The notes: a model not told the origin generated them from the sequence alone. Shown: positions 7,356 through 64,000, counted from the first letter of the stretch. The stretch: DNA of 64,000 nt from an uncultured Verrucomicrobiota bacterium (GCA_945834475.1 CAMAHK010000002.1:27642-91641); one strand, 5' to 3'. Translations and numbers: made by a program.

Positions 7356-7366
7356 CAAGCCTATAT

Positions 7367-7375
7367 TATATCAAA
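7367..7375 (-). promoter_or_regulatory. TGATATAAT extended -10 upstream of dxr
   Basis: On the minus strand, TGATATAATATAGGCTTG then ATG. Confidence 0.45.
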
Positions 7376-7452
7376 TTCAAAGAAGCCGACGGACAATCCA
7401 TTCCCAAGCAATCAGCCGCCATTCGACCGGGGCGCCTTCGGGCTTAAGAATT

Positions 7453-8223
7453 TCAGGGATAGTCCGCCGGCAAAGTGAGGACTTCGCACCCGTCGTCGGT
7501 GATCGCGACGGTGTGCTCGAAATGGGCGGCCAGCGAGCGGTCGCGCGTCACGACCGTCCAGTCGTTCGAGAGGACATCCGTCTTCTCGCCCGCCTTCGTC
7601 ATCGTGATCATCGGCTCGATCGCAATCGTCATGCCCGGACGCAAGACGAGTTTCGTCCCCGGCTTGCCGTAGTTCGGCACCTCCGGGTCTTCGTGCACGT
7701 CACGCCCGACGCCATGGCCGATCCAATCACGAACGACGCCAAAGCCGGCCGCTTCCGCGACCAGCTGGATCGCATAGCCGACATCGCCAAGGTGGACGCC
7801 CGGCCCACACGCGGCGATGCCCGCCTTGAGACAGGCCTTCGTCGTTTCCACAAGACGGATGATCTCGGGATCCGTCACGCCGAGCATCACCGTGCGCGAC
7901 GTGTCACCGTTGAATCCGTTCTTGAGGATGCCGACGTCGGTCTTCACGAGGTCACCCGGCATAATCACGCGGCTGCGCGAGGGAATGCCGTGAATGACCT
8001 CGTCGTTGATCGAGACACACAAGTGCCCCGGAAAGCCCGCATACTTATAGAAGCTCGCCTTGACCTTGTGCTTCTCACAGTAGTCGACAACAAGATCGTC
8101 AATATCGGCCGTCGTCATCCCGGGTGAAACCGCCTTCGCGCAGATGTCGCGAATTTCCGCGCTCATCCGGCAGGCTTCTCGCATCCGATCGATTTCCGCC
8201 TTGGTTTTAATGTCAACCTTCAT
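7453..8223 (-). CDS. map: Type I methionine aminopeptidase
   Basis: Pita-bread fold with metal ligands (D..D..H..E..E), full length. Confidence 0.9.
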   Translation of the reverse strand: MKVDIKTKAEIDRMREACRMSAEIRDICAKAVSPGMTTADIDDLVVDYCEKHKVKASFYKYAGFPGHLCVSINDEVIHGIPSRSRVIMPGDLVKTDVGILKNGFNGDTSRTVMLGVTDPEIIRLVETTKACLKAGIAACGPGVHLGDVGYAIQLVAEAAGFGVVRDWIGHGVGRDVHEDPEVPNYGKPGTKLVLRPGMTIAIEPMITMTKAGEKTDVLSNDWTVVTRDRSLAAHFEHTVAITDDGCEVLTLPADYP

Positions 8224-8265
8224 GACTCACTCGCCACCAACCATCAACCAACAACCAACAACCAA

Positions 8266-8898
8266 TCACATGACCGCGATGAAGTTCTTCGCGACCGTGT
8301 CGATCGGATCGGTGCCGACGACCGTCTTGAGGACACCCTTGTCCTCGTAGAACTTGATCAACGGCTCGGTCTCGCCGTGATAGACGACGAGGCGGTCCTT
8401 GACCGTGTCGGGATTGTCGTCCTTGCGGATCGTGAGCTCCGCGCCGCAGACGTCGCAGATGCCCTCCACCTTCGGCGGGAGGTTCTTGACGTGGTAGCCG
8501 GCTTTGCACTTCGGGCACGTGCGACGGCCCGCGATGCGGTCCTGGATGATCTCGTCCGGGACGTCGATGAGAACGGCCGACTTCACCGGCGCACCCATCT
8601 CCTCGAGGATCTTCGCCTGTGCGAGGTTGCGCGGAAAGCCGTCGAGGAGCATCGTCACGTCGCCCGTCGTTTCGGCGACAACATCCTTGATCATCTGCGC
8701 GATAAGCGCATCCGGAACAAGCTTGCCCGCTTCCATAAAGCCCTTGGCCTCGATGCCGGACGGCGTACCCTTCGCCACCGCGCCGCGGAGGAGATCACCC
8801 GACGAGACGTGCTTCAAGTTCGCGTTCTCGGCCGCGAGCTTGCCCGCAACCGTACCCTTCCCCGAGCCCGGGGCACCCAACAAAATGACAATGTTCAT
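8266..8898 (-). CDS. adk: Adenylate kinase (zinc-lid type)
   Basis: GAPGSGKGT P-loop and lid cysteines CPKC...CDVC. Confidence 0.9.
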   Translation of the reverse strand: MNIVILLGAPGSGKGTVAGKLAAENANLKHVSSGDLLRGAVAKGTPSGIEAKGFMEAGKLVPDALIAQMIKDVVAETTGDVTMLLDGFPRNLAQAKILEEMGAPVKSAVLIDVPDEIIQDRIAGRRTCPKCKAGYHVKNLPPKVEGICDVCGAELTIRKDDNPDTVKDRLVVYHGETEPLIKFYEDKGVLKTVVGTDPIDTVAKNFIAVM

Positions 8899-8938
8899 AG
8901 TTAAGTTGTATTATATCACAAATCGGGTGTTCTGATAA

Positions 8939-8967
8939 AAACAAAACCCCAATTTTCATTGGGGCCT
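8939..8967 (-). terminator. Terminator hairpin downstream of tRNA-Tyr
   Basis: On the minus strand, GGCCCCAATGAAAATTGGGG followed by TTTTGTTTTT. Confidence 0.55.
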
Positions 8968-8973
8968 CGTGAT

Positions 8974-9058
8974 TGGTGGTGGGGCAAGGATTCGAACCTT
9001 GGAAGGCATAGCCAGCAGATTTACAGTCTGCCCTCGTTGACCGCTTGAGTATCCCACC
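8974..9058 (-). tRNA. tRNA-Tyr (GTA)
   Basis: Cloverleaf read by eye: acceptor GGTGGGA, anticodon loop CTGTAAA, long variable arm, T-loop GGTTCGAATCC and an encoded CCA. Confidence 0.8.
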
Positions 9059-9156
9059 GAGAGACTTACACTTTGACATGCAAGTGGCGTGTAGTATATC
9101 ACACACCGGCCACCCGAGTCAATAGGGCAAAACGAAAATGTTGAAATGCTGAAGAC

Positions 9157-12543: not shown

Positions 12544-12611
12544 AGGGTATATTATATCAAATTTTACCCCGCAAAAAACAACAAACCCCGAGAACTGTTG
12601 CCTCGGGGTAG

Positions 12612-12708: not shown

Positions 12709-12800
12709 TGGCGGAGAGAGAGGGATTCGAACCCCCGATACCCTTGCGGGTATGCATGATTTCGAGTCATGTGCATTCAACCAGGCTCTGCCATCTCTCC
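12709..12800 (-). tRNA. tRNA-Ser (CGA)
   Basis: 92 nt with GGAGAGA acceptor, anticodon loop CTCGAAA, long variable arm CATACCCGCAAGGGTATC and an encoded CCA. Confidence 0.8.
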
Positions 12801-12814: not shown

Positions 12815-12823
12815 ATTATATCA
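12815..12823 (-). promoter_or_regulatory. GATATAAT box about 15 nt upstream of the tRNA-Ser 5' end
   Basis: On the minus strand, TTTTTTTTGATATAATTCGCGCTCGTTGCAG then GGAGAGATGG. Confidence 0.4.
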
Positions 12824-19295: not shown

Positions 19296-21661
19296 TTTTG
19301 CCTTCCTTTCTTCTGGGCTTCTTCGATCTGGCGGACGGTATCTAAGATCTCCGCCTCACCAGGTTTGAGTTCGAGCGCCTTGGCAGCCGACTCCGCAGCC
19401 TTTGCCAGACGGTCGGTCTTCAGATAGACAAGCGCTAGGTTGTTGTAGACCGATGCCTCGTCGGGACTCCGCTTCAGCACACGCTTCAGATACTCCTCGG
19501 CTTTCGCGAACTGTTCCTCGACGTAATAGCTCATTCCGAGCGCAAAGTTCGCGTTCGGCTCGTCCGGATCCTGGTGCAGAACCGGCATCGCATACCGCCG
19601 CGCCATCACGAAGTCGGCCCGGCGAAGCGCCACGGCTAGGCCCTCGCGCGGCGTCAGGTCCTCGCCGTTCTGGCGACGCACCCAGTCTATCCGGCGGAGG
19701 ATTTTCCTGAGCGAGGGATTGTGCTCGTTCAGCCGATTCGCGTAGGCGATTTCCTCGATCGACTCGCGCGTCTTCATCTGCGGATCGAGCTGAATCGCGC
19801 GTAGGCGACTCATCACGGCGAGACGGAACTGGGCGAACAGGAAGCGGTCCTTGAGGAGCGGATTGACGGCATGCCGCCAGACCCCCTTCTCGTGTTGCTC
19901 CACGATCAGATCCGCAAGACGATGGCAGCGCGAGACGGACGAGGCCGCCGCATCGGCACTCCCGCCGAGGGGACGCACCAAGGCGCCGTAGACGACCGGT
20001 TTGAGGCGATGGTTAAACCGAAACAGTTCGAACGCCAACTGAACGGCACACTCGGCGAGCCGGTCGGACTTCGTCATCACCCACGTCCGCAGGGCTTCCG
20101 CCGCACCGGCCTGTAGCGTCAGGCGGTCCTCGAGCCCCATCGCACCCAGCTGACGCAGATAGGCCTCGCGACGGGATTTGCCGCCCATAACCGAAATCGG
20201 CTGAATCGCAACGCCGCGACGGAGGGCCTCAAGCCGGAGATACGGGTCAAACGCACCCTCAGTAAAGAGATATTTCACCCCCTCGGACTCGTCGATGAGC
20301 TCGTTGACGAACTGATGGACAATCCCCTGGAGCCGACGGTCGTCCGGCAGACGGCGCCCCCAAACGATGATAGCGACCAACACCAACGGAACAGTCAGCA
20401 ACACCAGGCGGCCAAGGCCGAGACGAACGCTCGCGAACGTCTCTGAAGCGAGAACCGGACGCGCCGCCCTGTCGCCTTCCTGCTCTTCCCGATAGCCCTG
20501 AAAGAGGACGGATTCGATATGGTCATAGTCGCGGCAGAGGATCTCCACGCAGAGCACGAACAGAGCCCAAGCGAGTGTCAGGGACGAAAGGAACGCCCCG
20601 GCAAGCGTCAGCGTCCGCGAAACCTGAACGCCGTCGACCGCCTGCCAGAACCAGGTCACCGAAAACGGTGACAGCTGAAGAAAGGCAATGAGTCCGCACA
20701 AAAAGTAAACGACTGAATATTTCAGCGGCAGGAAGTTTTCCTCGTCCGTCGCCGAACGCGACATCAGAAAAACCAGAAAGCCCGGCAACACGACAGCCCC
20801 GAGAAGAGACAGGAAGCCCGACACGTTCGCACCATCGAGTATCAAGTCAAAATAAGCCCCCGCATACAACGTCGGAAATTCGCTCGCGAACCGACCATGA
20901 GCCTTGAGGCCATCCATCATGGCAAAAGCGAAGCACTCAAGAAGCACCGCCAGGATCAGCGTTCCCAGAAACGCGAAGGTCACCGACCATTTCGTGCGCT
21001 GCATCCGAATCGGATTAAGGAACTCCACCCAGGATTTAGGCTTCTCGCCCGCGAGGAACCGACGCATCAGGACGAGCAGGAGCAAGAAGACGATCCACCC
21101 GAACGGAGACTCGGCGCAAAGAACCGCGAGCGCGAAAAGCGTCAGCACCGCCGCCGTAAACGAGGCCTTGCGCAAAAGCCGCATGAACAGCCACACCGTC
21201 AGAATCGCCAGAAAAACAACGAACAGCGAGCCGGAAACGCCTTGCGCCGCACACCAGAACGGATCGGAGCAACCAAGCGCCAGCGCAGCCGCTGCGGATG
21301 CGATGCGCAACGCCAGCAAACGCCGCCGCATGTCGCGCTGCCCACTGATCGTCACCAATGACAATATGTCGAAAATCGCCCCGTAGGCGAGATAGACGCA
21401 GACTCCGACTGCCAGTTTCGAGAGCACGACAACAATCGAGGTCGCCGCAGCCTGCGGCAATACGGCAGAAACAAGATGCGCTAGGTAAACGCCAAGGCCC
21501 GGCAACATACGGTCGGCCGGCATCAGCCCCGCCGCCACCGCCGTATCGTTCCACGCCGTCGGATGCAGCCCCGGGAACGGCCAGATCAACAACAACACAA
21601 CAACCACCGCCGCGAGCGACGCGGCGATAATTCTGTTAGTCCAAGAAGTCTTTTCGGGCAT
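19292..21661 (-). CDS. Polytopic membrane protein with C-terminal TPR repeats (DUF2723/glycosyltransferase-like)
   Basis: At least ten predicted transmembrane helices followed by TPR units near the C-terminus. Confidence 0.4.
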   Translation of the reverse strand: MPEKTSWTNRIIAASLAAVVVVLLLIWPFPGLHPTAWNDTAVAAGLMPADRMLPGLGVYLAHLVSAVLPQAAATSIVVVLSKLAVGVCVYLAYGAIFDILSLVTISGQRDMRRRLLALRIASAAAALALGCSDPFWCAAQGVSGSLFVVFLAILTVWLFMRLLRKASFTAAVLTLFALAVLCAESPFGWIVFLLLLVLMRRFLAGEKPKSWVEFLNPIRMQRTKWSVTFAFLGTLILAVLLECFAFAMMDGLKAHGRFASEFPTLYAGAYFDLILDGANVSGFLSLLGAVVLPGFLVFLMSRSATDEENFLPLKYSVVYFLCGLIAFLQLSPFSVTWFWQAVDGVQVSRTLTLAGAFLSSLTLAWALFVLCVEILCRDYDHIESVLFQGYREEQEGDRAARPVLASETFASVRLGLGRLVLLTVPLVLVAIIVWGRRLPDDRRLQGIVHQFVNELIDESEGVKYLFTEGAFDPYLRLEALRRGVAIQPISVMGGKSRREAYLRQLGAMGLEDRLTLQAGAAEALRTWVMTKSDRLAECAVQLAFELFRFNHRLKPVVYGALVRPLGGSADAAASSVSRCHRLADLIVEQHEKGVWRHAVNPLLKDRFLFAQFRLAVMSRLRAIQLDPQMKTRESIEEIAYANRLNEHNPSLRKILRRIDWVRRQNGEDLTPREGLAVALRRADFVMARRYAMPVLHQDPDEPNANFALGMSYYVEEQFAKAEEYLKRVLKRSPDEASVYNNLALVYLKTDRLAKAAESAAKALELKPGEAEILDTVRQIEEAQKKGRQK

Positions 21662-21803
21662 AGAGTCTCCCTACAACGAGTTTGAGTTTGTATTATACCA
21701 AAAAAAGCACAGATTCAGGCGAAAGAATCGACAGGCCGCATGGAGAATATCCGTGCGGCCTCAGACTGCTCTTTCAGAGAGCAGCAGATGGAAAAACCAG
21801 GCC

Positions 21804-22776: not shown

Positions 22777-22785
22777 ATTATATCA
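22777..22785 (-). promoter_or_regulatory. TGATATAAT extended -10 seven nt upstream of the prs ATG
   Basis: On the minus strand, TGATATAATtcacaccATG. Confidence 0.45.
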
Positions 22786-22827: not shown

Positions 22828-23406
22828 TTACCTGATCAACGACAGGAATTCCTGCCGAACTTTCTCGTCGGAACGGAAGGTTCCCAAAACGGCAGACGTC
22901 GTCATTTCGCTGTTCTGCTTCTCGACGCCGCGCATCATCATGCAGAGGTGTTTTGCGTGAATGACGACGCCGACGCCTTCCGCCCCCGTTTCGGCCATGA
23001 TGGCGTTCGCGATCTCCTCGGTCATGCGCTCCTGGATCTGAAAGCGCCGCGCGAACATATCGACGATGCGCGCGAGCTTCGAGACGCCGAGGACTTTCCC
23101 CTTCGAGATGTAGCCGATCGCGCACTTGCCATAGAACGGCAGTAGGTGGTGTTCGCAGAGGGAATAGAGTTCGATGTCCTTGAGGATCACCATGTGGTTG
23201 GTGCCGCTCGTGAACTTCGCGTTGTTGACGACCGCCTTAAGATTCTGCCGATACCCGCGCGTCAGGAACGTCATCGCCTTCGCCACGCGCATCGGCGTCT
23301 TCAGGAGACCTTCGCGATCCGGATCTTCGCCCAGTTCGACAATGATTTCACGGACAAGCTCCGCGATCTTCTTCTCGTTCGGTACAGTAGATGTGGTCTT
23401 TTTCAT
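22828..23406 (-). CDS. folE: GTP cyclohydrolase I
   Basis: CEHHLLPF and [12 protein letters not shown] motifs. ATG at 23404-23406. Confidence 0.85.
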
Positions 23407-23477
23407 TTCAAAGATTGATTTGTTTGAGTATTGTACCACAAATACTGCTTCGCATGCCGACATTATGGCACAATTTT

Positions 23478-23486
23478 TGGTATAAT
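23478..23486 (+). promoter_or_regulatory. Extended -10 (TGGTATAAT) six nt upstream of the ftsH ATG
   Basis: TGGTATAATtaacgtATG, with no room for a Shine-Dalgarno sequence. Confidence 0.5.
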
Positions 23487-23492: not shown

Positions 23493-25350
<1,858 letters not shown>

Positions 25351-32651: not shown

Positions 32652-32726
32652 CCGAGTACATGTTGCGGTGCGACGAAATTTTTGTTAAAATGTGCTTATC
32701 ATCTCTTCAAGGGGAGAAATCATACT

Positions 32727-35700
32727 ATGAAAACATTGAAAATTGTCGTCAGTTCGTTGGCAATCGGCGCACTGTGTCATGCGCTGCCAGCTGCCGATGT
32801 CATCAGTCTCAACTTCGGTTCCGGCAACGGAGCGGTCGGGAATACCACCGCATACGGCATCGTTCCGGCGACCAATTGGTTCAATCTAGCTGCTGCAGGC
32901 AACACCCGTACCGACATCACCTCGATGAACGGCCGATTGCTCGGGAATCTCGTTTGGAATTGCAAAAATACATATCAATATACTGACGGCATTACCGACA
33001 ACGCTCTCAAGGGCTACCTCGATGACGGCGACAGCGGCAACGTCATCACGATTGCCTTGACCGGTATTCCCTTCGAGTACTACCGGGTAATCGTCTACCA
33101 GGCGACCGACACGCCGAATGCGCAGTTCAACCCGCCCTCGCTCAACGGGGTTTTCTATTCGTATGACGGCGGCAAGAAGTCGATGGTGCGCAACAATACT
33201 TTTCTCAAATACGGCAGCTCGCGAAATGCCACGGCCGTGGTCGGCACCAATGTTGCCGAATATCAGCGCGTCTTCAGCGGCGACATGACTATTCTTGGCG
33301 GCGGCAGCATCAATAATAATGGAGTGCGTGGATGCATCGCCGCCGTGCAGATTGTCGAGGCTGATAGCTATACTGCCACGCTGACGGGCGATAGCGATTT
33401 CAATAACTTGACCTGGTCGCCCGAAAAGCCGGCTGATGGCTTTGCCGCTGGATCGGTTTTGAAGGTAAATTATGCAGGCGATACGCCCGTTACATTGAAG
33501 GCGAACGGCGATTATTCCGGCTTGGGACTCGCAATTTCCGGACCGATTGCGCTTAAAACTACGACTCGTATCAAGACGGCTTGCGTTTCGTTCGACAACG
33601 GAGCCTCGCTTGATCTTTCGGCGATGGCGATTGACGAAACGGCCAAGGCTGCCGTGCGCGGCGTGCCGGCGGCGACGGACTTCATTCTCGGCGAGTTGGA
33701 CGCCGCGTCGGTTTCGGTAACGCTCCCGACGGTGGAGGCTGGCTACAACGTCGCGCTCGATACGGTTACCGGCTTTGGTACGCGTCTCGTGGTGACAGCC
33801 CCCAACAGTGCCGAATTCCGTTCGGTCAACTTCAACTTCTCGCGCACGTTCGACAATGCGGAATTGACCGATGGCGCGAGGTATGGTCTCCATCAAGTCG
33901 CCAAGGAAAACTGGAAAGTCGTCGAGACCAACGGCGAAGGCAAGGTGGTCGCGACTGTGTCGAACGGCGTGACGCTGACCCCGACCATCACGAACCTGGC
34001 GCTCGACACATCCGACATGGGCGTTGGCCTGTTCGACGGCGCCGTCAACGACAACCCCAATAACGACGAGTCGACCGCCACGTACGGGTTTACGCTTTCA
34101 GGCATCAATACGGCCGTGGGCGGGAAGTACCGCGTCATCGTCAACATGATTTCGAATCAGGGCAATGGCTTTTCGCCCGTGTCGATCGGCGGTAAAAAGT
34201 ACCACGGAACCGGCGCAACGGCCGGGGCGACGATGTCGTCCGCCGATGAAGTTCGCTGGGGTACGCTTTCCGCGAATTCCATGGCGACCGAAGGCTTGAA
34301 TACGGTAGTTTCAGACGTTCTGACCGCAGACTCAGTGACGGTCGAGACCTGCCGCAATTACACTCAATACGGCGCGCGTGCTAGCATTTGCGCCTTGCAA
34401 GTCGTCGAAGTCGGCGAGCTTGCGCATTTCGAGGCGGTTGCTTTCACCGCCAATTTGACGGGCGATGCGACGTGGGGCGCGAAGACCGGCTTGTCGGATC
34501 CGAGCGCGGAATGGAAGAATGGCGCTGACAATACTATTACGCTCACCAATACCGCGAGCGCGGCGGAGATTACCCTGACGATCGACTCGTCGATCGTCGC
34601 TAAGTCGTTCAAGATCGTCTCCCCGGCCGGACATCGCGTGTTGATTGCGCGTACCAACGGCGCAACCATCGACGTCGATTCGCTCGATTTTGTCGAAGCT
34701 CCCAGTTTCGTTGTCTACACCAATCCGGTGTCGGCGCTCGCGTCGGATACGGTAGTCAACCGCGCTTGGGGCGGCGGCAATGCCGATCCCGAGCAAGCCA
34801 TTGCCATCGAGCACAACGGCGGCGAACTTAATCTCGTCGGCGGCATCTGGAAACTCCAGCAGTCGAATAACGGCACTGCCACGAGCGTTCGGATGGTCGA
34901 CGCTTCAGTTGCCTACACCGACGTGCTGGGCATCGGCACGGCGAGCTACTACCTTGGCGGCACGACGGCAGTGACCACGCCGAGCCTCGTGATCTCGCAA
35001 GGCGCGGCCGGGCGCACCGCTTTACTCGAACTCGCCGACTCTTCTTCCGTAACGGTAACTGGCAATACCTCCGCCGACCAGAACACTTCTTCGGTCATGT
35101 TCGGTCACTGGAACGGACCCGGCACATTCACCATCAAGGACAGCGCCGCCTTCACCGCGCCGGGCGATGTGCTGGTGGGTCTGACTAGCAATCGACAGAC
35201 GATTAATATCGAGGGCGGCACTTTCACGGCACGGGGCATAAAGCTTTCTGTGAACGCTACTGGTACGAATATCCTTAATTTCAACGGCGGCGTTTTGGCG
35301 CTTGGAGAGACTGGTATCGGTACCTATTCGGCGCAACGCACGATGCAAATTAACATCAGCAATTCGCCGGAACTGCGCGCGACGGCGGCGACGCTGCCGA
35401 TTGCCGAGCCGGTAAATATCGCCGCCGGCGCTACGCTGAATTTGACCAAAGCCGAAGGCGTCGAAGCAGCGACCGTCACGATGTCCGCCGCCGTGACCGG
35501 CGAAGGCGCCATCAACGTCGGCGCAGGTGTTACGCTCAAGCTCGTGGGCGCGGCGATGGAGGGTACGCTCGGCTCGGTTGAAGGTGGTCTCACCTTCGTT
35601 GCTTCTGCGGCGCAGCTCGTCGATGGTGTCATCACGATGGCGACGACGCAGGACAACTATGACGGGGCGACGATCACCGTCGTCAATGAAGCCGGCGAGG

Positions 35701-37169
35701 TTGTCGAGCACACGGCGGCGGTTGCCCACGGCGTGTTGACGCTCACGCTCTCGGTCAACAGTTTTGTCGATGCGAACACGTCGACGGCCGAGTGGGACTC
35801 GGGAATGACGGGCTATGTCACCGTCAAGAACACGGGCGATGAAGCGACGACGCTCACCATCAGCACGATCCCGTCTGGCGTCACCGCGATCAATGTGTTC
35901 GGCAAGGTCGACATCGTCTTCACCGAAGATGCGGTGGCGTGCGGGGTTCCGGTGCAACTCCAGTCGGGTGCCGAGGTCACGGCGTCCGGCGCGGTAAAGA
36001 ATCCGATGACTGTTCCGGCGGGTACGACGCTCACGGTGGCGGGCGAAACTTCGTCCGTTGACGCGCTCGTTTCCGTTTCGGGTGGTGAAGTTGTCATCGA
36101 CGGTACGGTGACGGCCAATGCGCGTATCGTGATTCCGAACGGTTCGACGCTTACGGTGAAGCCGGGCGCGACGCTCAATCTGACGTTGAACGAGCAGTTC
36201 AGCGCTGTGGCGGGTAATGCCGTGAACGGAACCTACAATATTTACGGCACGCTCAATCTCGGTTCGTCGCGCCTTAACATGAACAATGCGCACGATACCT
36301 GCTGGTTGAATCTCTATGCGGGCTCGATCATGACCGGTACGGATGAAGCGTGGTTCAACATGACGGGCGGCTGGGATCCGTGGATCTACATCAAGGCCTT
36401 CCCTGAAGCCGTGAACCAGTTTGTCACGTTTGACGTCCACTACGGTCATGGAGATTACAACGCGAACCCGAAGTGGAAGATGGAGAACGGCTCGGGCGTC
36501 GGACTCAAGATCCTGAAGACGACGAACAACTCCGAGACGCTCATCAAGGACACGACGAATGTCGGAGGCCTCGAACTTGCGGGCAACGTGAAGGTGCAGA
36601 TGCCTGAGGCCGAGCGCGGACTCCGCGGTGCGGTTGTGATCGGTGCGGGTACGAAAGTCACGCTGACGCGGAACGACTCGATCAGCTACGATCAGAATCC
36701 GAAGACGACGCTTGATATCGCCGGCATCCTCGATTGCGGCGCGTTCCGTCAGACGCTCTTCGAGGACAACACGATCACGCTGCGCGATGGCGGTCAGATC
36801 ACGGGTGCGGGCGCTGATTACAACAGCGAATACACGGCGGCGCTTGACGTGTGCCGTGCGCTGACGATCAAGGTCGCTGGGACGGCGACGATTGCGGGTC
36901 CGGTGGCGCAGCGTAATGCTGAGAGCGTCATCACGATCGCGCCGGTCGATGCCGAGATGAAGGGGACGCTCGTCCTTTCCAATCCGATCATCCGGTCGTC
37001 GCACATCGACCTTCAGCCGGGGGCGAAGGTTCAGCTGCCGTCGACGGTTAATGCGTCGAAGGTCATTACCACGGCGCGCGGCAAGATGATTGTTGCGAAG
37101 CCTGCGGCGACGGAAGGACAGACAATCTATCGCACGGCCAACAAGTCGTTTACCTTCATCATCCAGTAA
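32727..37169 (+). CDS. Giant secreted repetitive protein (1480 aa; beta-helix or autotransporter-associated beta-strand-repeat-like), function unknown
   Basis: GGGGAG Shine-Dalgarno sequence 10 nt upstream and a signal peptide MKTLKIVVSSLAIGALCHALPA. Sequence is Gly/Thr/Asn/Val-rich with degenerate repeats. No PEP-CTERM or autotransporter barrel was recognised. Confidence 0.6.
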   Translation: MKTLKIVVSSLAIGALCHALPAADVISLNFGSGNGAVGNTTAYGIVPATNWFNLAAAGNTRTDITSMNGRLLGNLVWNCKNTYQYTDGITDNALKGYLDDGDSGNVITIALTGIPFEYYRVIVYQATDTPNAQFNPPSLNGVFYSYDGGKKSMVRNNTFLKYGSSRNATAVVGTNVAEYQRVFSGDMTILGGGSINNNGVRGCIAAVQIVEADSYTATLTGDSDFNNLTWSPEKPADGFAAGSVLKVNYAGDTPVTLKANGDYSGLGLAISGPIALKTTTRIKTACVSFDNGASLDLSAMAIDETAKAAVRGVPAATDFILGELDAASVSVTLPTVEAGYNVALDTVTGFGTRLVVTAPNSAEFRSVNFNFSRTFDNAELTDGARYGLHQVAKENWKVVETNGEGKVVATVSNGVTLTPTITNLALDTSDMGVGLFDGAVNDNPNNDESTATYGFTLSGINTAVGGKYRVIVNMISNQGNGFSPVSIGGKKYHGTGATAGATMSSADEVRWGTLSANSMATEGLNTVVSDVLTADSVTVETCRNYTQYGARASICALQVVEVGELAHFEAVAFTANLTGDATWGAKTGLSDPSAEWKNGADNTITLTNTASAAEITLTIDSSIVAKSFKIVSPAGHRVLIARTNGATIDVDSLDFVEAPSFVVYTNPVSALASDTVVNRAWGGGNADPEQAIAIEHNGGELNLVGGIWKLQQSNNGTATSVRMVDASVAYTDVLGIGTASYYLGGTTAVTTPSLVISQGAAGRTALLELADSSSVTVTGNTSADQNTSSVMFGHWNGPGTFTIKDSAAFTAPGDVLVGLTSNRQTINIEGGTFTARGIKLSVNATGTNILNFNGGVLALGETGIGTYSAQRTMQINISNSPELRATAATLPIAEPVNIAAGATLNLTKAEGVEAATVTMSAAVTGEGAINVGAGVTLKLVGAAMEGTLGSVEGGLTFVASAAQLVDGVITMATTQDNYDGATITVVNEAGEVVEHTAAVAHGVLTLTLSVNSFVDANTSTAEWDSGMTGYVTVKNTGDEATTLTISTIPSGVTAINVFGKVDIVFTEDAVACGVPVQLQSGAEVTASGAVKNPMTVPAGTTLTVAGETSSVDALVSVSGGEVVIDGTVTANARIVIPNGSTLTVKPGATLNLTLNEQFSAVAGNAVNGTYNIYGTLNLGSSRLNMNNAHDTCWLNLYAGSIMTGTDEAWFNMTGGWDPWIYIKAFPEAVNQFVTFDVHYGHGDYNANPKWKMENGSGVGLKILKTTNNSETLIKDTTNVGGLELAGNVKVQMPEAERGLRGAVVIGAGTKVTLTRNDSISYDQNPKTTLDIAGILDCGAFRQTLFEDNTITLRDGGQITGAGADYNSEYTAALDVCRALTIKVAGTATIAGPVAQRNAESVITIAPVDAEMKGTLVLSNPIIRSSHIDLQPGAKVQLPSTVNASKVITTARGKMIVAKPAATEGQTIYRTANKSFTFIIQ

Positions 37170-41659: not shown

Positions 41660-43030
41660 TTACACCGGTACGCCGATCAGAATCTGCGGATGGGCCTCAG
41701 TAATCTTGAGACTGACAAAATCGCCAATCGCCAAGTCACCAGTTTCCTTCACCCATTCTCCATTTTCTCCGACGTCCCACACGATAATGCGGTTGCCGGA
41801 GTCGCGCCCCGACCAACGCTTCGGATTGCGCTTTGAAGGCCCCTCGACCAGCACCTCGCGTACTGTGCCGACGAGCGCCTCGTTTCGCCGCTGGCCGCGC
41901 GATTCCTGATCGGCGAGAAGCACCTGGTCGCGGCGCTCCTTCTCGGCCGTCGTCACGTCGTCCGTGAGCGCCGCCGAGCGCGTACCGGGACGCGGCGAGT
42001 ACTTAAAGACGAACGAGTTGTCGAAGCCCGCCTCTTCCATCAGCGTGCGCGTCTCCTCAAAGTCGGCCTCCGTCTCGCCCGGATACCCGACGATCACGTC
42101 AGTCGTCACGGCGAACTCGGGATCGAAGTCTCGGAGCTTCTTCACCGCCGCGAGATACTCCGCGCGCGTGTAGTGACGCCCCATCTCCGCGAGGACGCGG
42201 TCCGAGCCGGACTGCACGGGCAGGTGCAGGTGGCGGCAGACCTTCGGACACTCCCGGTAGACGCGCACGAGTTCGTCAGTGCACCCCTTCGGATGCGCCG
42301 AGGTGAAGCGGATGCGTTCGATGCCCGGAATCTGGTTGAGTTCCCACAACAGTCTCGGAAACGCCTCGGTGAGTCCACTCGCGTTCGGCTCTCCCGGCTC
42401 CCACGCCTTGTTGCGGATGCCGTAGCGAAGAACGCTCTGTCCGAGGAGACAGACTTCCTTCACGCCGCGCGCGGCAAGGCACTTCACCTCGGCGATCACT
42501 TCCTTCGCGGGACGCGAATATTCGTGTCCGCGCACCTCGGGGACGATGCAGTAGCTGCAGCGGTTGTCACAGCCGAGCAACACCGTCACATAGCTCTGGA
42601 ACATTCCGCTCGTGCCGCCGCGCTGAACGTCGGGATGCGCGTCCATTCCCGTCGGCACCTCGTCGTCGCCGACCTCAAGAATCCCCTTCTCGCCCGCCGC
42701 GATTCGGTTGAGAAGATGCGGAATGAGGCCGAAACGCCGCGGCCCGACAGCAAAGTCAAGCTTCGGCAGGCGTTTGAAGACATCCGCACCCATCCGCTTC
42801 ACCGCGCATCCCATGAGCCCCGTGATTTTTCCGGCGGCGATCATGTTGCCGGCCTTGCCGACGGCCTTCTCCTCGGCCTTCTGGCGCACCGTACAGCTGT
42901 TAATGATGATGAGTTCCGCGTCGGCTTCGTCGGCGGCCTTGACGTGTCCCGCGGCCACCAGAAGCGCCTCGACCGCTTCCGAGTCGCGGACGTTCATCTG
43001 GCAGCCGTACGTGTGAATATGGAACCGCAT
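41660..43030 (-). CDS. miaB: tRNA-i6A37 methylthiotransferase
   Basis: MRFHIHTYGCQMN start, radical-SAM CxxxCxxC and a C-terminal TRAM domain. The ATG at 43030 overlaps the maeB stop (ATGA). The 263-aa ORF-track N-terminal extension was rejected. Confidence 0.85.
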   Translation of the reverse strand: MRFHIHTYGCQMNVRDSEAVEALLVAAGHVKAADEADAELIIINSCTVRQKAEEKAVGKAGNMIAAGKITGLMGCAVKRMGADVFKRLPKLDFAVGPRRFGLIPHLLNRIAAGEKGILEVGDDEVPTGMDAHPDVQRGGTSGMFQSYVTVLLGCDNRCSYCIVPEVRGHEYSRPAKEVIAEVKCLAARGVKEVCLLGQSVLRYGIRNKAWEPGEPNASGLTEAFPRLLWELNQIPGIERIRFTSAHPKGCTDELVRVYRECPKVCRHLHLPVQSGSDRVLAEMGRHYTRAEYLAAVKKLRDFDPEFAVTTDVIVGYPGETEADFEETRTLMEEAGFDNSFVFKYSPRPGTRSAALTDDVTTAEKERRDQVLLADQESRGQRRNEALVGTVREVLVEGPSKRNPKRWSGRDSGNRIIVWDVGENGEWVKETGDLAIGDFVSLKITEAHPQILIGVPV

Positions 43031-44325: not shown

Positions 44326-44451
44326 TTGAATTCGTCTCAATCTGAGGTTTGAAAATGTTTAGGAGTCACTATTATACCACAATCCGCCGCGCCCATGCGT
44401 TTTCCACGTTTGTGCCTGACACAATCGTGGAAAAAGTAATCTCGCGGCGAA

Positions 44452-47131: not shown

Positions 47132-48085
47132 TTAGATGCCGACGGCCTTGCGGACCTTCTCCATCGTCTTCGCCGCGGACCAGCGGGCCTTCTTCGCGCC
47201 GTCCTGGAGAATGTCCTCGAGCGACTTCGGGTCCTTCGCGAGCTGGTCGCGCTTTTCCTTGAAGGGATCGAAGAGACGGTGATAGGCGTTCAGGAGCTCC
47301 TTCTTCGCCGAGCCGTAGCCATAGCCGCCCGCTCGGAAGTTCGCCGCCATCTGGGCGACCTCCTCCGGCGTCGCGAAGAGCTTGTAGAGCTCGTAGACGG
47401 AATTCCCCTCCGGCTCCTTCGGCTCTTCCATCGGCGTCGAATCGGTTTGGATGCCCATCACCTTCTTCTTCGCGGAGACGTCGAAGAGCTCGATCGTGTT
47501 GTGATAGCTCTTGGACATCTTCTGGCCGTCGGTTCCGGGGATCGTCGCGACCGTCTCGGGAATGTACGCGTCGGGCAGCTTGAAGATCTCGCCGTAGGCG
47601 TTGTTGAACTTCTGCGCCAGGTCGCGCGTCACCTCGAGGTGCTGCTTCTGGTCCTTGCCGACGGGGACAAGGTCCGCGTTCATGATGAGGATGTCGGCCG
47701 CCATCAGAACGGGATACGCGAACAGCCCGTGCGTCGCCTCGAAGCCGTGCGCCATCTTGTCCTTGTAGCTGTGGCAGCGTTCGAGGAGGCCCATTGGCGT
47801 CAGGCACGAGAGATACCACGCGAGTTCCTGAACCTCCGGCACGTCGCTCTGCCGGTACATGATCGTCTTCTCGGGATCGAGTCCGCACGCGAGATAGTCG
47901 AGCGCAACTTCGCGCGTCGCCTCCCGAAGCGCCTTGCCGTCACGGACGGTCGTCATGGCGTGGTAGTTCGCGATGAACATGAAGTTCTCGCCCTTCTCCT
48001 GAAGGTCGAACATGGACTTCATCGCGCCGAAATAGTTGCCCCAATGGAGCTTGCCCGAGGGCTGGATGCCGGTCAGAATTCTCAT
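47132..48085 (-). CDS. trpS: Tryptophan--tRNA ligase
   Basis: TGIQPSGKLHWGNY (HIGH-like) and KMSKS motifs. A TGCTATAAT box lies 8 nt upstream of the ATG. Confidence 0.9.
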   Translation of the reverse strand: MRILTGIQPSGKLHWGNYFGAMKSMFDLQEKGENFMFIANYHAMTTVRDGKALREATREVALDYLACGLDPEKTIMYRQSDVPEVQELAWYLSCLTPMGLLERCHSYKDKMAHGFEATHGLFAYPVLMAADILIMNADLVPVGKDQKQHLEVTRDLAQKFNNAYGEIFKLPDAYIPETVATIPGTDGQKMSKSYHNTIELFDVSAKKKVMGIQTDSTPMEEPKEPEGNSVYELYKLFATPEEVAQMAANFRAGGYGYGSAKKELLNAYHRLFDPFKEKRDQLAKDPKSLEDILQDGAKKARWSAAKTMEKVRKAVGI

Positions 48086-48093: not shown

Positions 48094-48102
48094 ATTATAG
48101 CA
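48094..48102 (-). promoter_or_regulatory. TGCTATAAT extended -10 eight nt upstream of the trpS ATG
   Basis: On the minus strand, TGCTATAATattgaactATG. Confidence 0.45.
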
Positions 48103-55037: not shown

Positions 55038-55073
55038 TTGAGGGCATATTATATCAAAAACACCCTGTGATAT

Positions 55074-58578: not shown

Positions 58579-59439
58579 TCAAACCAAAACATTATCGATC
58601 AACCGCGTCTTGCCGTCGTACGCCGCGACGAGCACGCAGCATCCCTTGCCGATCTTCTTGCGCGTCTCGAGCGTCTCGGCATCAACGCATTCGACATAGT
58701 CGACCTTAAGTCCCGCCTTCGTCAAATCACGCTTAAGCTGCGCAATTCCGTACCGCGGAGCGTCCTCGCCCGCGGCGTCTCCAAGACCGCTCTTTCGCGC
58801 AGCGCCGGCCAGCTTCCTGAGTCCCCCCGAAATCGCGAGCGCCTTCGCCTTCTCCTCGGCGGAGAGGTACGTGTTGCGGCTCGAGCGGGCGAGGCCCGAC
58901 GGCTCGCGCACGATCGGCGCGACGACGATCTCGAGGTCGAAGTTGAGATCGCGCACCATGCGCTTGATGATCTGCGCCTGCTGGTAGTCCTTCTGACCGA
59001 AGACCGCGAAGTCGGCGTGAGCGAGATTGAAGAGCTTCGCGACGACCGTGCAGACGCCGCGGAAGTGCCCGGGACGCCGCGCGCCGCAGAGGCCCTTCGA
59101 GAGGTCCTCCTCGTTCACATAGACCGAGTGACGCTCAAGGTACATGTTCGTCGGCGTCGGGAAGAAGATTGCCGTCGCGCCCGCGGCCTTGCACTTCGCA
59201 AGGTCGGCCTTCTCGTCGCGCGGATACTTCTCGTAATCCTCGCCCGGACAGAACTGCACGGGATTGACGAACACCGAGACGATGATCTCGTCCGCCCCCT
59301 TCGCCTTCGCCTTCGCGATCAGCGAGAGATGTCCCTCATGCAAGTACCCCATCGTCGGCACGAGCGCAATCTTCTTGCCCGCCTTCGACTGGGCCTTCGC
59401 CCACTTCTGCAACTTCTTCGGTTCACGAAAAATTTTCAT
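58579..59439 (-). CDS. panC: Pantoate--beta-alanine ligase
   Basis: ALVPTMGYLHEGHLSL HIGH motif. ATG at 59437-59439, preceded by a TGGTATAAT box. Contains an in-frame repeat. Confidence 0.85.
   Translation of the reverse strand: MKIFREPKKLQKWAKAQSKAGKKIALVPTMGYLHEGHLSLIAKAKAKGADEIIVSVFVNPVQFCPGEDYEKYPRDEKADLAKCKAAGATAIFFPTPTNMYLERHSVYVNEEDLSKGLCGARRPGHFRGVCTVVAKLFNLAHADFAVFGQKDYQQAQIIKRMVRDLNFDLEIVVAPIVREPSGLARSSRNTYLSAEEKAKALAISGGLRKLAGAARKSGLGDAAGEDAPRYGIAQLKRDLTKAGLKVDYVECVDAETLETRKKIGKGCCVLVAAYDGKTRLIDNVLV
58749..58777. repeat. Family-A' element, in frame in panC
   Basis: CGTACCGCGGAGCGTCCTCGCCCGCGGCG. Confidence 0.7.
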
Positions 59440-59581
59440 AGTGAGTATTATTATACCATAAATGACCAAGCCCAGGCCTTCAGCCGAATCGGGTCGACGC
59501 ACGAAATGAGGACCGTCGACAAATTGTTGATAAGGCCTCTATAACTGTCGATAGGCCACAAACCGTGCGGGGAGCGGATTT

Positions 59582-59590
59582 TGTTATAAT
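59582..59590 (+). promoter_or_regulatory. Extended -10 (TGTTATAAT) seven nt upstream of the dnaB ATG
   Basis: TTGTTATAATcttgcccATG, with no room for a Shine-Dalgarno sequence. Confidence 0.45.
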
Positions 59591-59597: not shown

Positions 59598-61106
59598 ATG
59601 AACGATTTGAAGACACCTCCCAGCAACGTCGAGGCCGAACGGGCCGTGCTGGGTACGATTTTGCTCGATACCGCGAGCCGCAACGGCGACCGCGTGATGG
59701 ACACGTGCCTATCGAGCGGACTGACCGAAGAAAGCTTTTTCGATCCCCGCAACCGCACGATCTACGCGACGATGCTGACGATGAACCGTCAGTCGAAGCC
59801 GCTGGACATCCTGACGCTCACCGAAGAGCTGAACGTTACCGCAAAGATGGAGGCGATCGGCGGCATCGGCTACCTGCAGGGCGTCATCGACCAGGTACCG
59901 ACCGCCGCGCACGCCGAGCACTACATCTCGATCGTCAAGGCGAAGCAGCTGCGCCGCACACTGATCGAGCGCTCGACGAAGGTCATCGAGAAGTGCTACG
60001 ATGAGGAGAAGAACCCCGACCCAGGCGCCCTCCTCGGCGAGGCGGAGAAGTCCTTCCTCGAAATCGGCGGACAGGACAACAAGACGATGAGCTGGAGCGC
60101 GGCGGTTGAGGACAGCCTCAGACGCCTCGACAAGATGTTTGAGTCCGGCGGCAAGAAGATGGAAGGCCTTTCCACCGGTCTTCGTCATCTCGACGAAAAG
60201 CTTCAGGGCCTCAAGCCCGCCGAAATGATTGTCATCGCCGCGCGTCCGTCCGTCGGCAAGACCTCGCTCGCGATGAACATCGCCGAGTCGGCCGCGCTCG
60301 GACAGATGCTGACGCTCAAGAACGGCATGTACCCGCCGGTCGAGTCCGACGGCGGCAAGATGCATCCCGTCGGCATCTTCTCGCTCGAGATGCCCGTCGA
60401 GGCACTCACGAAGCGTATGGTCTCGGGACGCGCCCACGTCAACATGTGGCGCGTCGCCCGGAACCTCGTCCCGAAGAGCGAGAAGGAAATGCTCACGCAG
60501 AACATCTTCCACGCGGCGGATGAACTCCGGCGTGCGCCGATCTTCGTGGACGACACGGCCGGTCTGGACGTGATGGACCTCCGTGCCCGTGCGCGCCGCA
60601 TGCACAAGCAGCACAAGATCGAGCTCATCGTCATCGACTACCTCCAGCTCTGCACCTGCCGCGAAGCCGCGCGCATGGGCTCGCGCCAGATTGAGGTGTC
60701 GATGATTTCCCAACAAATCAAGGCGATGGCCAAGGAACTGAAGATCCCGGTGATCGTTCTCTCCCAGCTCTCGCGTGCGAACGAACAGCGCGGCGACAAA
60801 GAAGAGAAGCCGAAGCTTTCCGACCTCCGCGACTCGGGAGCCATCGAACAGGACGCGGATGTCGTCTTCCTCCTGCGCCGCCCCTCGCGCACGGCGACCT
60901 CGAAGGACTCTGGCGACGAAGCGCTCGCCATCATCGACGTCGCGAAGAACCGCAACGGAGAAATCGGCGAGGTAAAGACGAACTTCATCCGCGAGTACAC
61001 GCGTTTCGAGGACCGTCCGCTTGAGGCGACCGAGCCCGGCGAGAACTTCCAGTCCTCCGAACCCGAACCGCCGCCGCAACAGTTCGTACAGGACGTCTTC
61101 TCGTAA
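59598..61106 (+). CDS. dnaB: Replicative DNA helicase
   Basis: Walker A GKTS and a RecA-like C-terminal domain. ATG at 59598. Confidence 0.9.
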   Translation: MNDLKTPPSNVEAERAVLGTILLDTASRNGDRVMDTCLSSGLTEESFFDPRNRTIYATMLTMNRQSKPLDILTLTEELNVTAKMEAIGGIGYLQGVIDQVPTAAHAEHYISIVKAKQLRRTLIERSTKVIEKCYDEEKNPDPGALLGEAEKSFLEIGGQDNKTMSWSAAVEDSLRRLDKMFESGGKKMEGLSTGLRHLDEKLQGLKPAEMIVIAARPSVGKTSLAMNIAESAALGQMLTLKNGMYPPVESDGGKMHPVGIFSLEMPVEALTKRMVSGRAHVNMWRVARNLVPKSEKEMLTQNIFHAADELRRAPIFVDDTAGLDVMDLRARARRMHKQHKIELIVIDYLQLCTCREAARMGSRQIEVSMISQQIKAMAKELKIPVIVLSQLSRANEQRGDKEEKPKLSDLRDSGAIEQDADVVFLLRRPSRTATSKDSGDEALAIIDVAKNRNGEIGEVKTNFIREYTRFEDRPLEATEPGENFQSSEPEPPPQQFVQDVFS

Positions 61107-61672
61107 TGAAGCGGGCGTTCGATCTCCTCGTCGTCCTCGTCGCAGCCCCCTTCTGGGTGCCCGTCGCGGCGCTCGTCGCCGTGCTCGTCCGCATCAAGAT
61201 GGGTGCACCCGTCTTCTTCCATCAGGAACGCGCAGGTCTCAATGGCAAGAGTTTCCGTCTCGTCAAGTTCCGTTCAATGCGCGCGGGCGACGGCAGCGAC
61301 GCCGAACGGCTGACGAAGTTCGGACGCTTCCTGCGCGCCTCCTCCCTCGACGAGTTGCCCGAGCTCTGGAACGTCCTCAAGGGCGAGATGTCGCTCGTCG
61401 GTCCGCGTCCCCTTCCGATCCGCTACCTGCCGCGCTACTCGCCCGAACAGAACCGCCGGCACGAGGTTCTTCCCGGTATCACCGGCTGGGCGCAGGTGAA
61501 CGGACGCAACGCGCTCGACTGGGAAACGAAGTTCCGCTACGACGTCGACTATGTCGACCACCACAGCTTCTTCCTCGACCTGAAGATCCTCGTCCTGACG
61601 GCCTATCAGGTTATCGCCCCGAAGCACATCGCCCACGAAGGCGAGGCGACAATGAGCGAATTCCAGGGCTGA
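61106..61672 (+). CDS. Polyprenyl-phosphate sugar-1-phosphate transferase (Bac_transf family, small form)
   Basis: DELPELWNVLKGEMSLVGPRP catalytic motif. TAATG overlap with dnaB. Confidence 0.8.
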   Translation: MKRAFDLLVVLVAAPFWVPVAALVAVLVRIKMGAPVFFHQERAGLNGKSFRLVKFRSMRAGDGSDAERLTKFGRFLRASSLDELPELWNVLKGEMSLVGPRPLPIRYLPRYSPEQNRRHEVLPGITGWAQVNGRNALDWETKFRYDVDYVDHHSFFLDLKILVLTAYQVIAPKHIAHEGEATMSEFQG

Positions 61673-61786
61673 CACAAAGGTACGCCCACCACCGCACCCG
61701 GGGAGGAGGCGCCTCGCCTCCTCTGCAACCAAACAACCATCCCCACGCCAAAGGGAACTCAAAATCCTCCGTCAATACCATCAACA

Positions 61787-61842
61787 GTCTCATAAATACG
61801 AGACCGAAGGTCAGACCTATAATCCCATATTTATGAGACTAC
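61787..61842. repeat. AT-rich 13-bp perfect inverted repeat in a low-GC spacer
   Basis: AGTCTCATAAATA ... TATTTATGAGACT separated by about 30 nt. It lies inside a 585-bp region of about 45% GC. Confidence 0.5.
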
Positions 61843-62256
61843 TTCGAAGTATCACAACCCTTGATTCACAAGCCCGCCCCACGCCAATCCGACTTATCAA
61901 CAAAATTCCGCAATGGAGTCGCACCCCATAGATACCCCGCCTCCTCAACACCCATCATCTTATCTTCTAATCTGGAAATGCCTCTCAAGCTCACAGCGTC
62001 CTGTACTTGCGAGGTTTCCCGATATCAAACCAGCATACTGCGCAAAGCGTTCATCCAAAAATTCCACCGAGAGCAACTCCTGGACATTAGTCCTCTAGCC
62101 CGACTTTCCTGATAATCGGTAAACTAGAAAAAGTTTCGGACCGAACTTGCGGACTTTCCGCATCATTTGGCAACATAGCGGCCTGATTTTTCCGAAAAAG
62201 TTGTAGTGAAGACTTTGGTGTCTTGAAAAGCCGCGAGAACATGAGATAATACCCTC

Positions 62257-64000
62257 ATGTTTTTACGCAAGACATCACGATTCAAGGACGGCAAGGTCCA
62301 TGACTACTGGAGCGTCGCGGAGAACTCGCGTGCGGGGCGTCGCGTCGTCCAGCGGCAGCTTCTCTATCTCGGCGAGATAGACGAGGACCGGCAGAACGCC
62401 TGGCTCAACGCGATCAGCGAGCTCGACGAGCGCAAGGAGGTCGACGAACGAGGCTACCTGATTCCGCCTCCTCCGCCGGAGCCTCCGCGCGAGACGAAGA
62501 ACCCCATCCGAATCCGCCTGAGCCAGATGAAGGTCGAGAACATCCGCGAATGTGGCGCGTGCTGGCTCGGGCTCCACCTGTGGGATCTCGTCGGGCTGGA
62601 CTCGTTCTGGACAGGCAGGCTCCCGCCCAGCTCGCACGGCACGGACTGGCTCGCGATCTTCAAGGCCATCGTCCTCTACCGCCTGACGTCGCCGGGCAGC
62701 GAGTGGAGGATGCACCGCGACTGGTACGACGACACCGCCGTGCGAGACCTGCTCGGCGAGTCGTCCTACACGTCGAAGTCGACGCTCTACGGCTGCCTCG
62801 ACCGGCTCGTGACGCACAAGGACGCGATGTTCGGGTTCCTCCGCGCCCGCTGGGCGGGGCTCTTCTCCTCGAACTGCCGCGTCATCCTCTACGACCTGAC
62901 GAGCACGTACTTCGAGGTGGACGGGACGAAGGCCGAGACGTCCGAGCTTTTGCGCCACGGCTACAGCCGGGACAAGCGCGGCGACTGCCTGCAGGTCGTG
63001 ATCGCGCTCGTGATGACTCCGGACGGGCTGCCCCTAGCCTACGAGGTCATGCCCGGCAACACGTCGGACAAGGGCACGCAGATGCAGTTCGTCGACAGGC
63101 TCGTGAAGAAGTACGGCAAGGACGGCAAGCTCGACAGCCTCTGGCTCATGGACCGCGGCGTCCCGACGGAGGAGACGCTGGAGAAGATGCGCTCGCTCGG
63201 CTTCAAGTACCTCGTCGGATCCCCGCGCAGCACGGTCGGCGCGCTCGGCGAGAAGCTGTCGGGACAGGAGTGGACGCATGTGCAGGACGGCATCCGCGTG
63301 AAGTATGCGGCGGACGGGACGGACAAGTACGTCCTGACGCACAGCATGGCCCGCTTCACGAAGGAACACGCGATGCGCCAGTCGAAGATGCGCGCGGTGA
63401 TGAAGGTCCTCCATTCGATAGACGTGCGCATCGGAAGGCGCGTCGAAGTCGGAGACGACGGCAGGCCAGTCGAGAAGGAACGCAAGGCGCTTTCACGGGA
63501 CGAGCTCATCTCGCGACTTGCGGTGGCGAGGTCGAAGGCCGGACGCGCCTGGCGACTGTTCAGGATCCGCAAGCCGAAGCCGAAGGACACGACGGTCACG
63601 CAGGAGAACTTCTCGTGGTCGTTCGACCTCGAGGGGATCAAGGAGGCCCGGAGCAACGAGGGGACGTACCTGCTGCGCACGAACATGACCGAGGCCGATC
63701 CGGCGGTACTCTGGAAGCAGTACATGATCCAGGGCGAGATCGAGCAGTCGTTCAAGGAGGTGAAGAACGACCTCGGACTGAGGCCCATCTACCATCAGCT
63801 CGACAGTCGCATCGAGGCGCACATCTTCGTCAGCTACGTCGCCTACTGCCTTCAGGCGACGCTGAAGAACCTGACCCGGAGCAAGGCGAGCGGACTGACA
63901 CCCCGGCAGATCTTCGACAAGATGAGGAAGATCTATATGGTCGACGTGAAGATACCGACCACGGACGGCCGCGAGATCGTGATGCAGCGCTACGGCGAGC
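62257..64000 (+). mobile_element. IS1634-family (IS4 superfamily) transposase ORF, truncated by the window edge
   Basis: N-terminus MFLRKTSRFKDGKVHDYWSVAE...LLYLG and DDE region YLLRTNMTEADPAVLWKQYMIQGEIEQSFKEVKNDLGLRPIYHQL...EAHIFVSYVAYCL. The frame is open from 62257 to the end. A TGAGATAAT box lies 6 nt before the ATG. Confidence 0.75.

Follow-up and report, generated by a model that had tools for sequence, protein, structure and literature searches.

Boxes directly upstream of start codons

The window, by which we mean the whole 64,000-nucleotide (nt) stretch of DNA analysed here (positions 27642-91641 of CAMAHK010000002.1, GCA_945834475.1, from an uncultured Verrucomicrobiota bacterium), contained ten genes in which a box matching TGNTATAAT, exactly or with one mismatch, lay 6-11 nt before the ATG. 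Spacing throughout is the count of intervening nt, with neither the final T of the box nor the A of the ATG included. A preliminary description of the same DNA had placed the motif close to these ten starts; it was found at every one of them, and all of the gene identities that it had named were confirmed by Pfam. On the plus strand, the box TGGTATAAT at 23478..23486 was separated by 6 nt from the ATG of ftsH at 23493, and the box TGTTATAAT at 59582..59590 by 7 nt from that of dnaB at 59598. On the minus strand, the form TGATATAAT preceded prs (box 22777..22785, ATG 22769, 7 nt), gltA (12551..12559, ATG 12543, 7 nt), dxr (7365..7373, ATG 7355, 9 nt, with an in-frame TTG at 7358 only 6 nt from the box), a TPR gene of 291 amino acids (55048..55056, ATG 55037, 10 nt) and adk (8910..8918, ATG 8898, 11 nt). 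The remaining minus-strand genes were panC, with the box TGGTATAAT at 59450..59458 and the ATG at 59439 (10 nt), and trpS, with the box TGCTATAAT at 48094..48102 and the ATG at 48085 (8 nt). The tenth gene, encoding a DDE transposase, had the one-mismatch box TGAGATAAT at 62242..62250 on the plus strand, 6 nt before its ATG at 62257. The box positions first given for dxr, adk and gltA were 2-3 nt off, and the true ones begin at 7365, 8910 and 12551.

The motif TGNTATAAT had 12 exact matches on both strands of the window, whereas dinucleotide-preserving shuffles averaged 0.19 matches and never exceeded 2, an enrichment of about 60-fold. With a GC content of 58-65% in the window, the motif stood far above background. 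The hexamer TATAAT alone was present at 15 positions, where 2.0 were expected, and TG stood one base before it in 12 of these 15, as in extended -10 promoters. All 12 exact sites were intergenic and oriented toward the downstream gene or tRNA, and nine of them were followed after 6-11 nt by the ATG of a gene confirmed by Pfam. The -35 element was weak or absent, with at least four of six matches in only 4 of the 12 exact boxes. When one mismatch was allowed, four further boxes were found in the window (TGAGATAAT, TGTTAAAAT, TGGTACAAT, and TGATATACT). The motif was less uniform than the near-invariant TG(A/G)TATAAT first proposed: the third base was A in six exact sites, G in four, C in one and T in one, so that TGATATAAT was not invariant, and in the relatives described below G was the most frequent third base.

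Upstream of each of the ten genes lay a terminator, a divergently oriented gene or a gap of 32 nt or more, and no TGnTATAAT was found before any internal operon gene within the window. A terminator-like hairpin followed tRNA-Gly at 12609-12585, with the gltA box directly after it, and another followed tRNA-Tyr at 8970-8941, with the adk box directly after it, each within about 20 nt. Since these tRNA terminators lie directly upstream, the gltA and adk transcripts must be newly initiated no more than about 25 nt from the ATG. The packing of terminator, promoter and start codon was very compact at both genes. The spacing of 6-11 nt left insufficient room for a Shine-Dalgarno (SD) sequence and its spacer. 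Among the roughly 36 window genes that lacked such an abutting box, about half had an AAGGA, GGAG or GAGG motif 5-13 nt upstream, and the remainder were A-rich or featureless upstream (e.g. glgP, the GH97 gene and nagB).

Spacing in related genomes

The comparative set of 160 contigs (1.74 Mb in total) was made up of 80 loci centred on prs (1.19 Mb) and 80 metagenome loci centred on adk. The prs relatives, with a protein identity of 76-94%, belonged to genome bins of uncultured organisms from gut, faeces and rumen whose records were labelled Kiritimatiellia or Kiritimatiellae or, in older naming, Verrucomicrobia or Lentisphaerae. The lineage of the window is thus an uncultured gut and rumen Kiritimatiellia of the Planctomycetes-Verrucomicrobia-Chlamydiae (PVC) group. 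Six loci (L016, L025, L031, L052, L060, and L076) had a prs that was 85-87% identical to that of the window and the same promoter motif where the upstream promoter was visible, and their records were labelled Barnesiella, Azospirillum, Lachnospira, Lachnospiraceae, Clostridiales, and Alistipes; these were probably mis-binned or mislabelled genome bins.

The preliminary description had called for a motif search with the distance to starts, and this was carried out on the 160 contigs. The distance was measured from each TGNTATAAT to the first ATG that opened at least 80 codons. The promoters of prs and adk, through which the contigs had been retrieved, were left out together with duplicates, and 202 unique sites remained. 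The first 80 loci gave two peaks, one at 6-11 nt and one at 20-38 nt, and hardly any sites at 12-19 nt. Over the 202 sites the distribution was clearly bimodal, with none at 1-5 nt, a sharp class of 81 (40%) at 6-12 nt, 5 at 13-19 nt and 66 (33%) at 20-45 nt. Random positions fell in the 6-12 nt bin in 3.6% of cases, and the reverse direction from the same sites did so in 1 of 202. Seven ATGs at spacing 0 after TATAAT were rejected as artefacts, being in frame with a leadered downstream start or belonging to a tRNA. The class with the longer spacing had an A/G-rich SD (AAGGA or GGAG) centred about 10 nt before the ATG, at -14 to -8. The consensus of 206 clade sites was r-a/t-a/t-T-(T/A)-TG-(G/A)-TATAAT-a, with a faint T-T-G at 18-nt spacing.

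Predicted transcription start sites

In E. coli, transcription usually starts 7 or 8 bases downstream of the -10 hexamer, where a purine preceded by a pyrimidine is preferred. In the clade, position 7 after the box was a pyrimidine in all spacing classes, with G in 0-6%. The base before the ATG was a pyrimidine in 100% of the sites at spacing 6 and in 83-90% at spacing 7, where it was never G; the leadered class did not have this bias. Such a pyrimidine fits the Y(-1)R(+1) pattern of transcription starts, which at spacings of 6-7 nt predicts initiation on the A of the ATG. At spacing 10, position 7 was a pyrimidine in 100% and position 8 a purine in 90%, which predicted a leader of 3 nt. In panC, the bases at positions 7-8 were C-A, giving a predicted 3-nt leader, ACU-AUG.

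Because the box also precedes tRNA-Ser, with a perfect TTGACA, and leaders that contain an SD, it is a promoter and not a ribosome-binding signal. Our interpretation is that TGnTATAAT marks sigma-70-type extended -10 promoters that yield mRNAs without a leader or with a leader of 1-4 nt, to which we assign a probability of about 85%. The spacing, the pyrimidine pattern, the terminators and the bimodality all support the earlier proposal that the transcripts would start at the ATG or within a few nt of it. What the data show is the motif with its spacing and orientation, its conservation across the clade and that the start codons are correct; from these we infer the position of the start site and the mode of ribosome recruitment. 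The promoter would be of the housekeeping (sigma-70-type) extended -10 kind with a weak, dispensable -35. Where the box is 6-7 nt before the ATG (ftsH, dnaB, prs, gltA, and the transposase), RNA polymerase would start on the A of the ATG, so that the mRNAs of all five are predicted to be strictly leaderless. Such mRNAs would have neither a 5' untranslated region nor an SD, and a ribosome carrying initiator tRNA would recognise the 5'-terminal AUG directly. An SD-independent route of this kind, with 70S ribosomes or 30S-fMet-tRNA, is extrapolated from studies of E. coli and actinobacteria to which PMC3890552 and PMC12340547 refer.

Where the box is 8-11 nt before the ATG (trpS, dxr, panC, the 291-residue TPR gene, and adk), a purine located 7-9 nt past the box would serve as the start. 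At these spacings a short leader of 1-4 nt is more likely than an AUG exactly at the 5' end; such a mini-leader is probable for dxr, panC, the TPR gene and adk (3-4 nt in adk), and the prediction for trpS was ambiguous. The other genes have either a spacing of 20-45 nt with an AAGGA or GGAG SD, or an A-rich leader without one. The presence of predicted leaderless, SD-led and A-rich-leader genes in one genome implies a mixed translation regime. The preliminary description was right to propose a mixture of leaderless and SD-led genes, given the AAGGA/GGAG-type SD of about half of the other genes. The window contained neither S1 nor IF3, which that description had named as ribosome features to inspect, nor the 16S 3' tail.

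Start codons and conservation of individual genes

The reading depends on the ATG next to the box being the true start codon. The Pfam domain began close to the proposed methionine in adk (residue 6), trpS (residue 1), panC (residue 2), prs (residue 8) and dnaB (residue 7, N-terminal domain), and the conserved domain of dxr likewise began 1-8 residues from its ATG. The P-loop of adk (GAPGSGKG) ran from residue 7, which leaves no possible downstream start. The N-terminus M-x-x-K-D-D-F-M of prs was the same in the window, where the box abuts, and in the relatives led by an AAGGA SD. The N-terminus of adk was M-(N/D/K)-I-(V/A)-I-L-L-G (e.g. MNIVILLG) in all 80 orthologues, abutting and SD-led alike. 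The start codons are thereby confirmed, with weaker support for gltA, whose Pfam domain was found only from residue 40, and for the transposase, whose N-terminus was unsupported.

The abutting architecture recurred in orthologues of several of these genes. The box was 7 nt from the ATG of ftsH in L015, L025, and L043 and 10 nt from that of dxr in L007; it abutted adk in L050 and the orthologues of the 291-residue TPR gene in L002 and L003. In adk, 53 of 79 orthologues had an exact box 7-11 nt from the ATG, about 13 more had TGnTATACT at the same spacing, and about 11 were SD-led. Among adk orthologues of 77-87% identity, the spacing was kept while the spacer sequence was free to vary. The three bases directly before the ATG of adk orthologues were purine-pyrimidine-pyrimidine (ACT, GCC, ATT, GTT, ATC etc.) whether the box was 8, 9, 10 or 11 nt away, which suggests a conserved 3-nt mini-leader specific to adk. 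This pattern was strong at spacings of 8-11 nt as long as adk orthologues were counted in. As a general rule for these spacings it was rejected: after prs and adk were excluded and orthologues sharing an N-terminus were collapsed, only 16 of 43 independent genes had it, and 11 of the 43 had pyrimidine-pyrimidine-purine instead.

The prs gene behaved differently from adk in that it abutted the box only in the window and in L002 and L003, two of the three closest loci. In L001, whose prs was 94% identical, as in the closest loci, the gene was SD-led, and most of the prs relatives kept the promoter but had a leader of 20-38 nt with an AAGGA SD. The turnover of prs between abutting and SD-led architectures is therefore rapid among close relatives.

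Leadered promoters and neighbouring features

The preliminary description had also placed a box before tRNA-Ser, and this was indeed present, with TGATATAAT at 12815..12823 on the minus strand and 14 nt to the mature 5' end at 12800; it was accompanied by a perfect TTGACA -35 (12844-12839) with an 18-nt spacer. Two exact boxes, both of the leadered class, had been overlooked. One was TGGTATAAT at 21692..21700 on the minus strand, 30 nt before the ATG at 21661 of a 789-residue TPR gene that had a GGGAG SD. The other was TGGTATAAT at 44371..44379 on the minus strand, 45 nt before the ATG of the malic enzyme gene at 44325. A gene for a MiaB/RimO-type radical-SAM methylthiotransferase (41660-43030) began at the malic-enzyme stop codon, with dnaE directly after it, and the three may be co-transcribed as an operon from the leadered promoter at 44371.

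The one-mismatch boxes outside the abutting class were found before two protein genes and a tRNA. The box TGTTAAAAT at 32683..32691 on the plus strand was 35 nt before the ATG at 32727 of a gene for a protein of 1480 amino acids. The classical leader claimed for this giant gene held, with a GGGGAG SD; the one claimed for nagB did not, its leader of about 26 nt being A-rich and without an SD. The 1480-residue open reading frame (ORF; 32727-37169) had no Pfam match at E<=0.001, and its GC content at the third codon position was 0.72, below that of its neighbours. The box TGGTACAAT at 23430..23438 on the minus strand was 23 nt before the ATG of folE at 23406 and divergent from the ftsH promoter. 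The start codons of folE and ftsH were 86 nt apart, with an extra TGCCATAAT at 23462-23470 on the minus strand between them; the two promoters almost adjoin back to back, and mutual interference is possible. The box TGATATACT at 9093..9101 on the minus strand, with a TTGACT -35, preceded tRNA-Tyr, whose 5' end was at 9058. Downstream of this tRNA gene lay adk (8266-8898) and a methionine aminopeptidase gene (7453-8223); adk had its own promoter, and the two genes were not attached to a ribosomal-protein operon, unlike in many bacteria.

The transposase promoter was the sole abutting one with a mismatch (TGAGATAAT), and it had a TTGAAA -35 with a 16-nt spacer; the ORF (62257-63999) extended past the end of the window. 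Four well-supported genes, for glycogen phosphorylase (52668), the GH97 glycosidase (58456), nagB (29781) and folE (23406), were A-rich upstream with neither an SD nor an abutting box. They look like a further category of translation start, the third in this genome.

Discussion

Several points weigh against the interpretation of the abutting boxes as leaderless or near-leaderless promoters. The leaderless starts are predictions from sequence, in this organism and its relatives alike. Spacings of 8-11 nt exceed the 6-8 nt typical of GeneMarkS-2 group C, and five of the ten genes may have leaders of 1-4 nt. The trpS box was located in the 32 nt between alanine racemase and trpS, and that of the 291-residue TPR gene in the 36 nt that follow a tRNA U5-methyltransferase-like gene; with co-directional genes only 32-36 nt upstream, read-through transcripts with an internal AUG could contribute. 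The use of ATG, 88% in the abutting class and 86% in the leadered class, did not tell the two classes apart.

The same promoters might never produce a strictly leaderless mRNA, if transcription always started 1-5 nt before the AUG and initiation followed a short-leader mode other than recognition of a 5'-terminal AUG. About half of the abutting class has spacings of 8-11 nt, and the adk orthologues keep their purine-pyrimidine-pyrimidine triplet at any box distance, as such a mode would have it. At 6-7 nt, however, no purine other than the A of the ATG itself is available at the canonical start, 7-8 nt after the box, and a pyrimidine almost always precedes that A, which makes an exclusively short-leader mode unlikely. 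Very unlikely is a different role for the AT-rich motif, as a non-SD ribosome-binding or enhancer element within a longer leader from an upstream promoter, as in Bacteroidota (GeneMarkS-2 group B). Many other window genes lack an SD and are A-rich upstream, and some PVC bacteria, e.g. Akkermansia, have been described as SD-scarce (PMC10783764). Such a translation signal would be expected before internal operon genes too, but none was seen there in the window; the motif was confined to the first genes of transcription units, with terminators directly upstream of two boxes. It is also the exact sigma-70 extended -10 consensus, it precedes a tRNA gene with a perfect -35, and it occurs 20-45 nt upstream of genes that have their own SD.

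Misplaced start codons, with the true starts further downstream and the ATG near the box inside an ordinary 5' leader, are less probable still. The late domain onset in gltA and the unsupported N-terminus of the transposase would allow this for those two genes. Against it, the domains of adk, trpS, panC, prs, dxr, and dnaB begin 1-8 residues from the ATG, with the P-loop of adk at residue 7, the N-termini of orthologues align to the same methionine in SD-led relatives, and no SD was found before the next in-frame starts. Chance resemblance to TATAAT near starts in the AT-rich intergenic DNA of a 61% GC genome was already refuted by the controls. Intergenic regions are richer in AT than the whole-window shuffles assume, but 12 sites stood against 0.19 expected, and 69 of 202 sites in the forward direction against 1 of 202 in reverse. 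Nor would chance produce a bimodal distribution with an empty 1-5 nt bin and a near-empty 13-19 nt bin, or keep the spacing but not the sequence of the spacer across adk orthologues.

The class of mechanism is already known, and no new mechanism is revealed. We tentatively propose, at somewhat less than even odds, that the gut and rumen Kiritimatiellia are an undescribed leaderless-rich lineage of the PVC group, in which about 40% of the consensus promoters give mRNAs whose AUG is 5'-terminal or lies no more than 4 nt from the 5' end, the full box is kept at 61% GC, and genes switch quickly between the two forms (prs, with orthologues of about 76-94% identity) while the mini-leader of adk is kept. 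In the library searched, no paper was found that links leaderless expression to Kiritimatiellia, and for other PVC bacteria there were only passing mentions; a survey listed Kiritimatiellae as 63% SD-using and gave the anti-SD sequence CCUCCUUU (PMC10783764). If the proposal is true, widespread leaderless expression would extend to the PVC group, and the ribosome of this lineage would handle terminal or near-terminal AUGs as routinely as SD sites. Gene-calling tools that assume an SD would misplace starts in these abundant uncultured gut and rumen bacteria; the largest gain of GeneMark-HM over MetaProdigal was in gene-start prediction in leaderless-type genomes (PMC8153819). The promoter consensus with its two spacing classes would provide a rule for predicting transcription units, and the boxes could serve as minimal expression elements for a lineage without genetics. 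As prs seems to be leaderless in some close relatives and SD-led in others, it would offer a natural series for the gain and loss of 5' leaders.

Comparison with known systems

A -10 box next to the start codon is generally accepted as the mark of bacterial leaderless genes. Zheng et al. (2011) described TANNNT about 12 nt upstream of starts, in TA-like signal genes (PMC3160421). In GeneMarkS-2, group C, which is defined by this arrangement, comprised 1028 of 4769 bacterial genomes, mostly of Actinobacteria and Deinococcus-Thermus, with 25-50% of the transcripts predicted to be leaderless (PMC6028130), and 717 of 4930 human-gut species-level models were assigned to the same group (PMC8153819). 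The window resembled group C in having a -10 box a few nt upstream of the starts of first genes in operons, in mixing these with SD-led genes, and in the share of about 25-50% of the transcription units. It differed in that group C is dominated by Actinobacteria and Deinococcus-Thermus and has a spacing of 6-8 nt, compared with up to 11 nt here. High-GC genomes of group C have the degenerate TAnnnT, whereas this lineage of 61% GC has the full TGnTATAAT.

Leaderless transcripts of matching architecture have been mapped experimentally in M. tuberculosis (PMC3898074), in D. deserti by differential RNA sequencing (dRNA-seq; PMC4007540) and in C. glutamicum, where 33% of the mRNAs were leaderless and extended -10 promoters with a weak -35 were found (PMC3890552). 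The sigma-A promoters of C. glutamicum are similar to the boxes described here in the extended -10 TGnTATAAT, the weak -35 and the dominance of AUG as the start codon. They belong to another phylum, only a subset of them extends the TAnnnT core in this way, and their starts were mapped, whereas those here are predicted from sequence. In Deinococcus-Thermus, a 2025 study that also surveyed other phyla found the -10 region adjacent to ORFs throughout the phylum (PMC12340547). There too, the -10 motif abuts ORFs as a leaderless promoter and is kept phylum-wide (PMC12340547, PMC4007540), but the share is higher (about 30% of all ORFs, and 60% of D. deserti mRNAs) and there is no strong TG extension.

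A strong TG extension has been described in Lactococcus, as a TG peak (PMC3160421). The boxes of the window share with the Firmicutes -16 type the strong TG, the conserved T two bases upstream and the dispensable -35. Promoters of that type, with a -16 region or extended -10, have the form TRTGnTATAAT. They occur in low-GC genomes whose genes are mostly SD-led, and the base before their TG is a purine, whereas it is T or A in the lineage described here.

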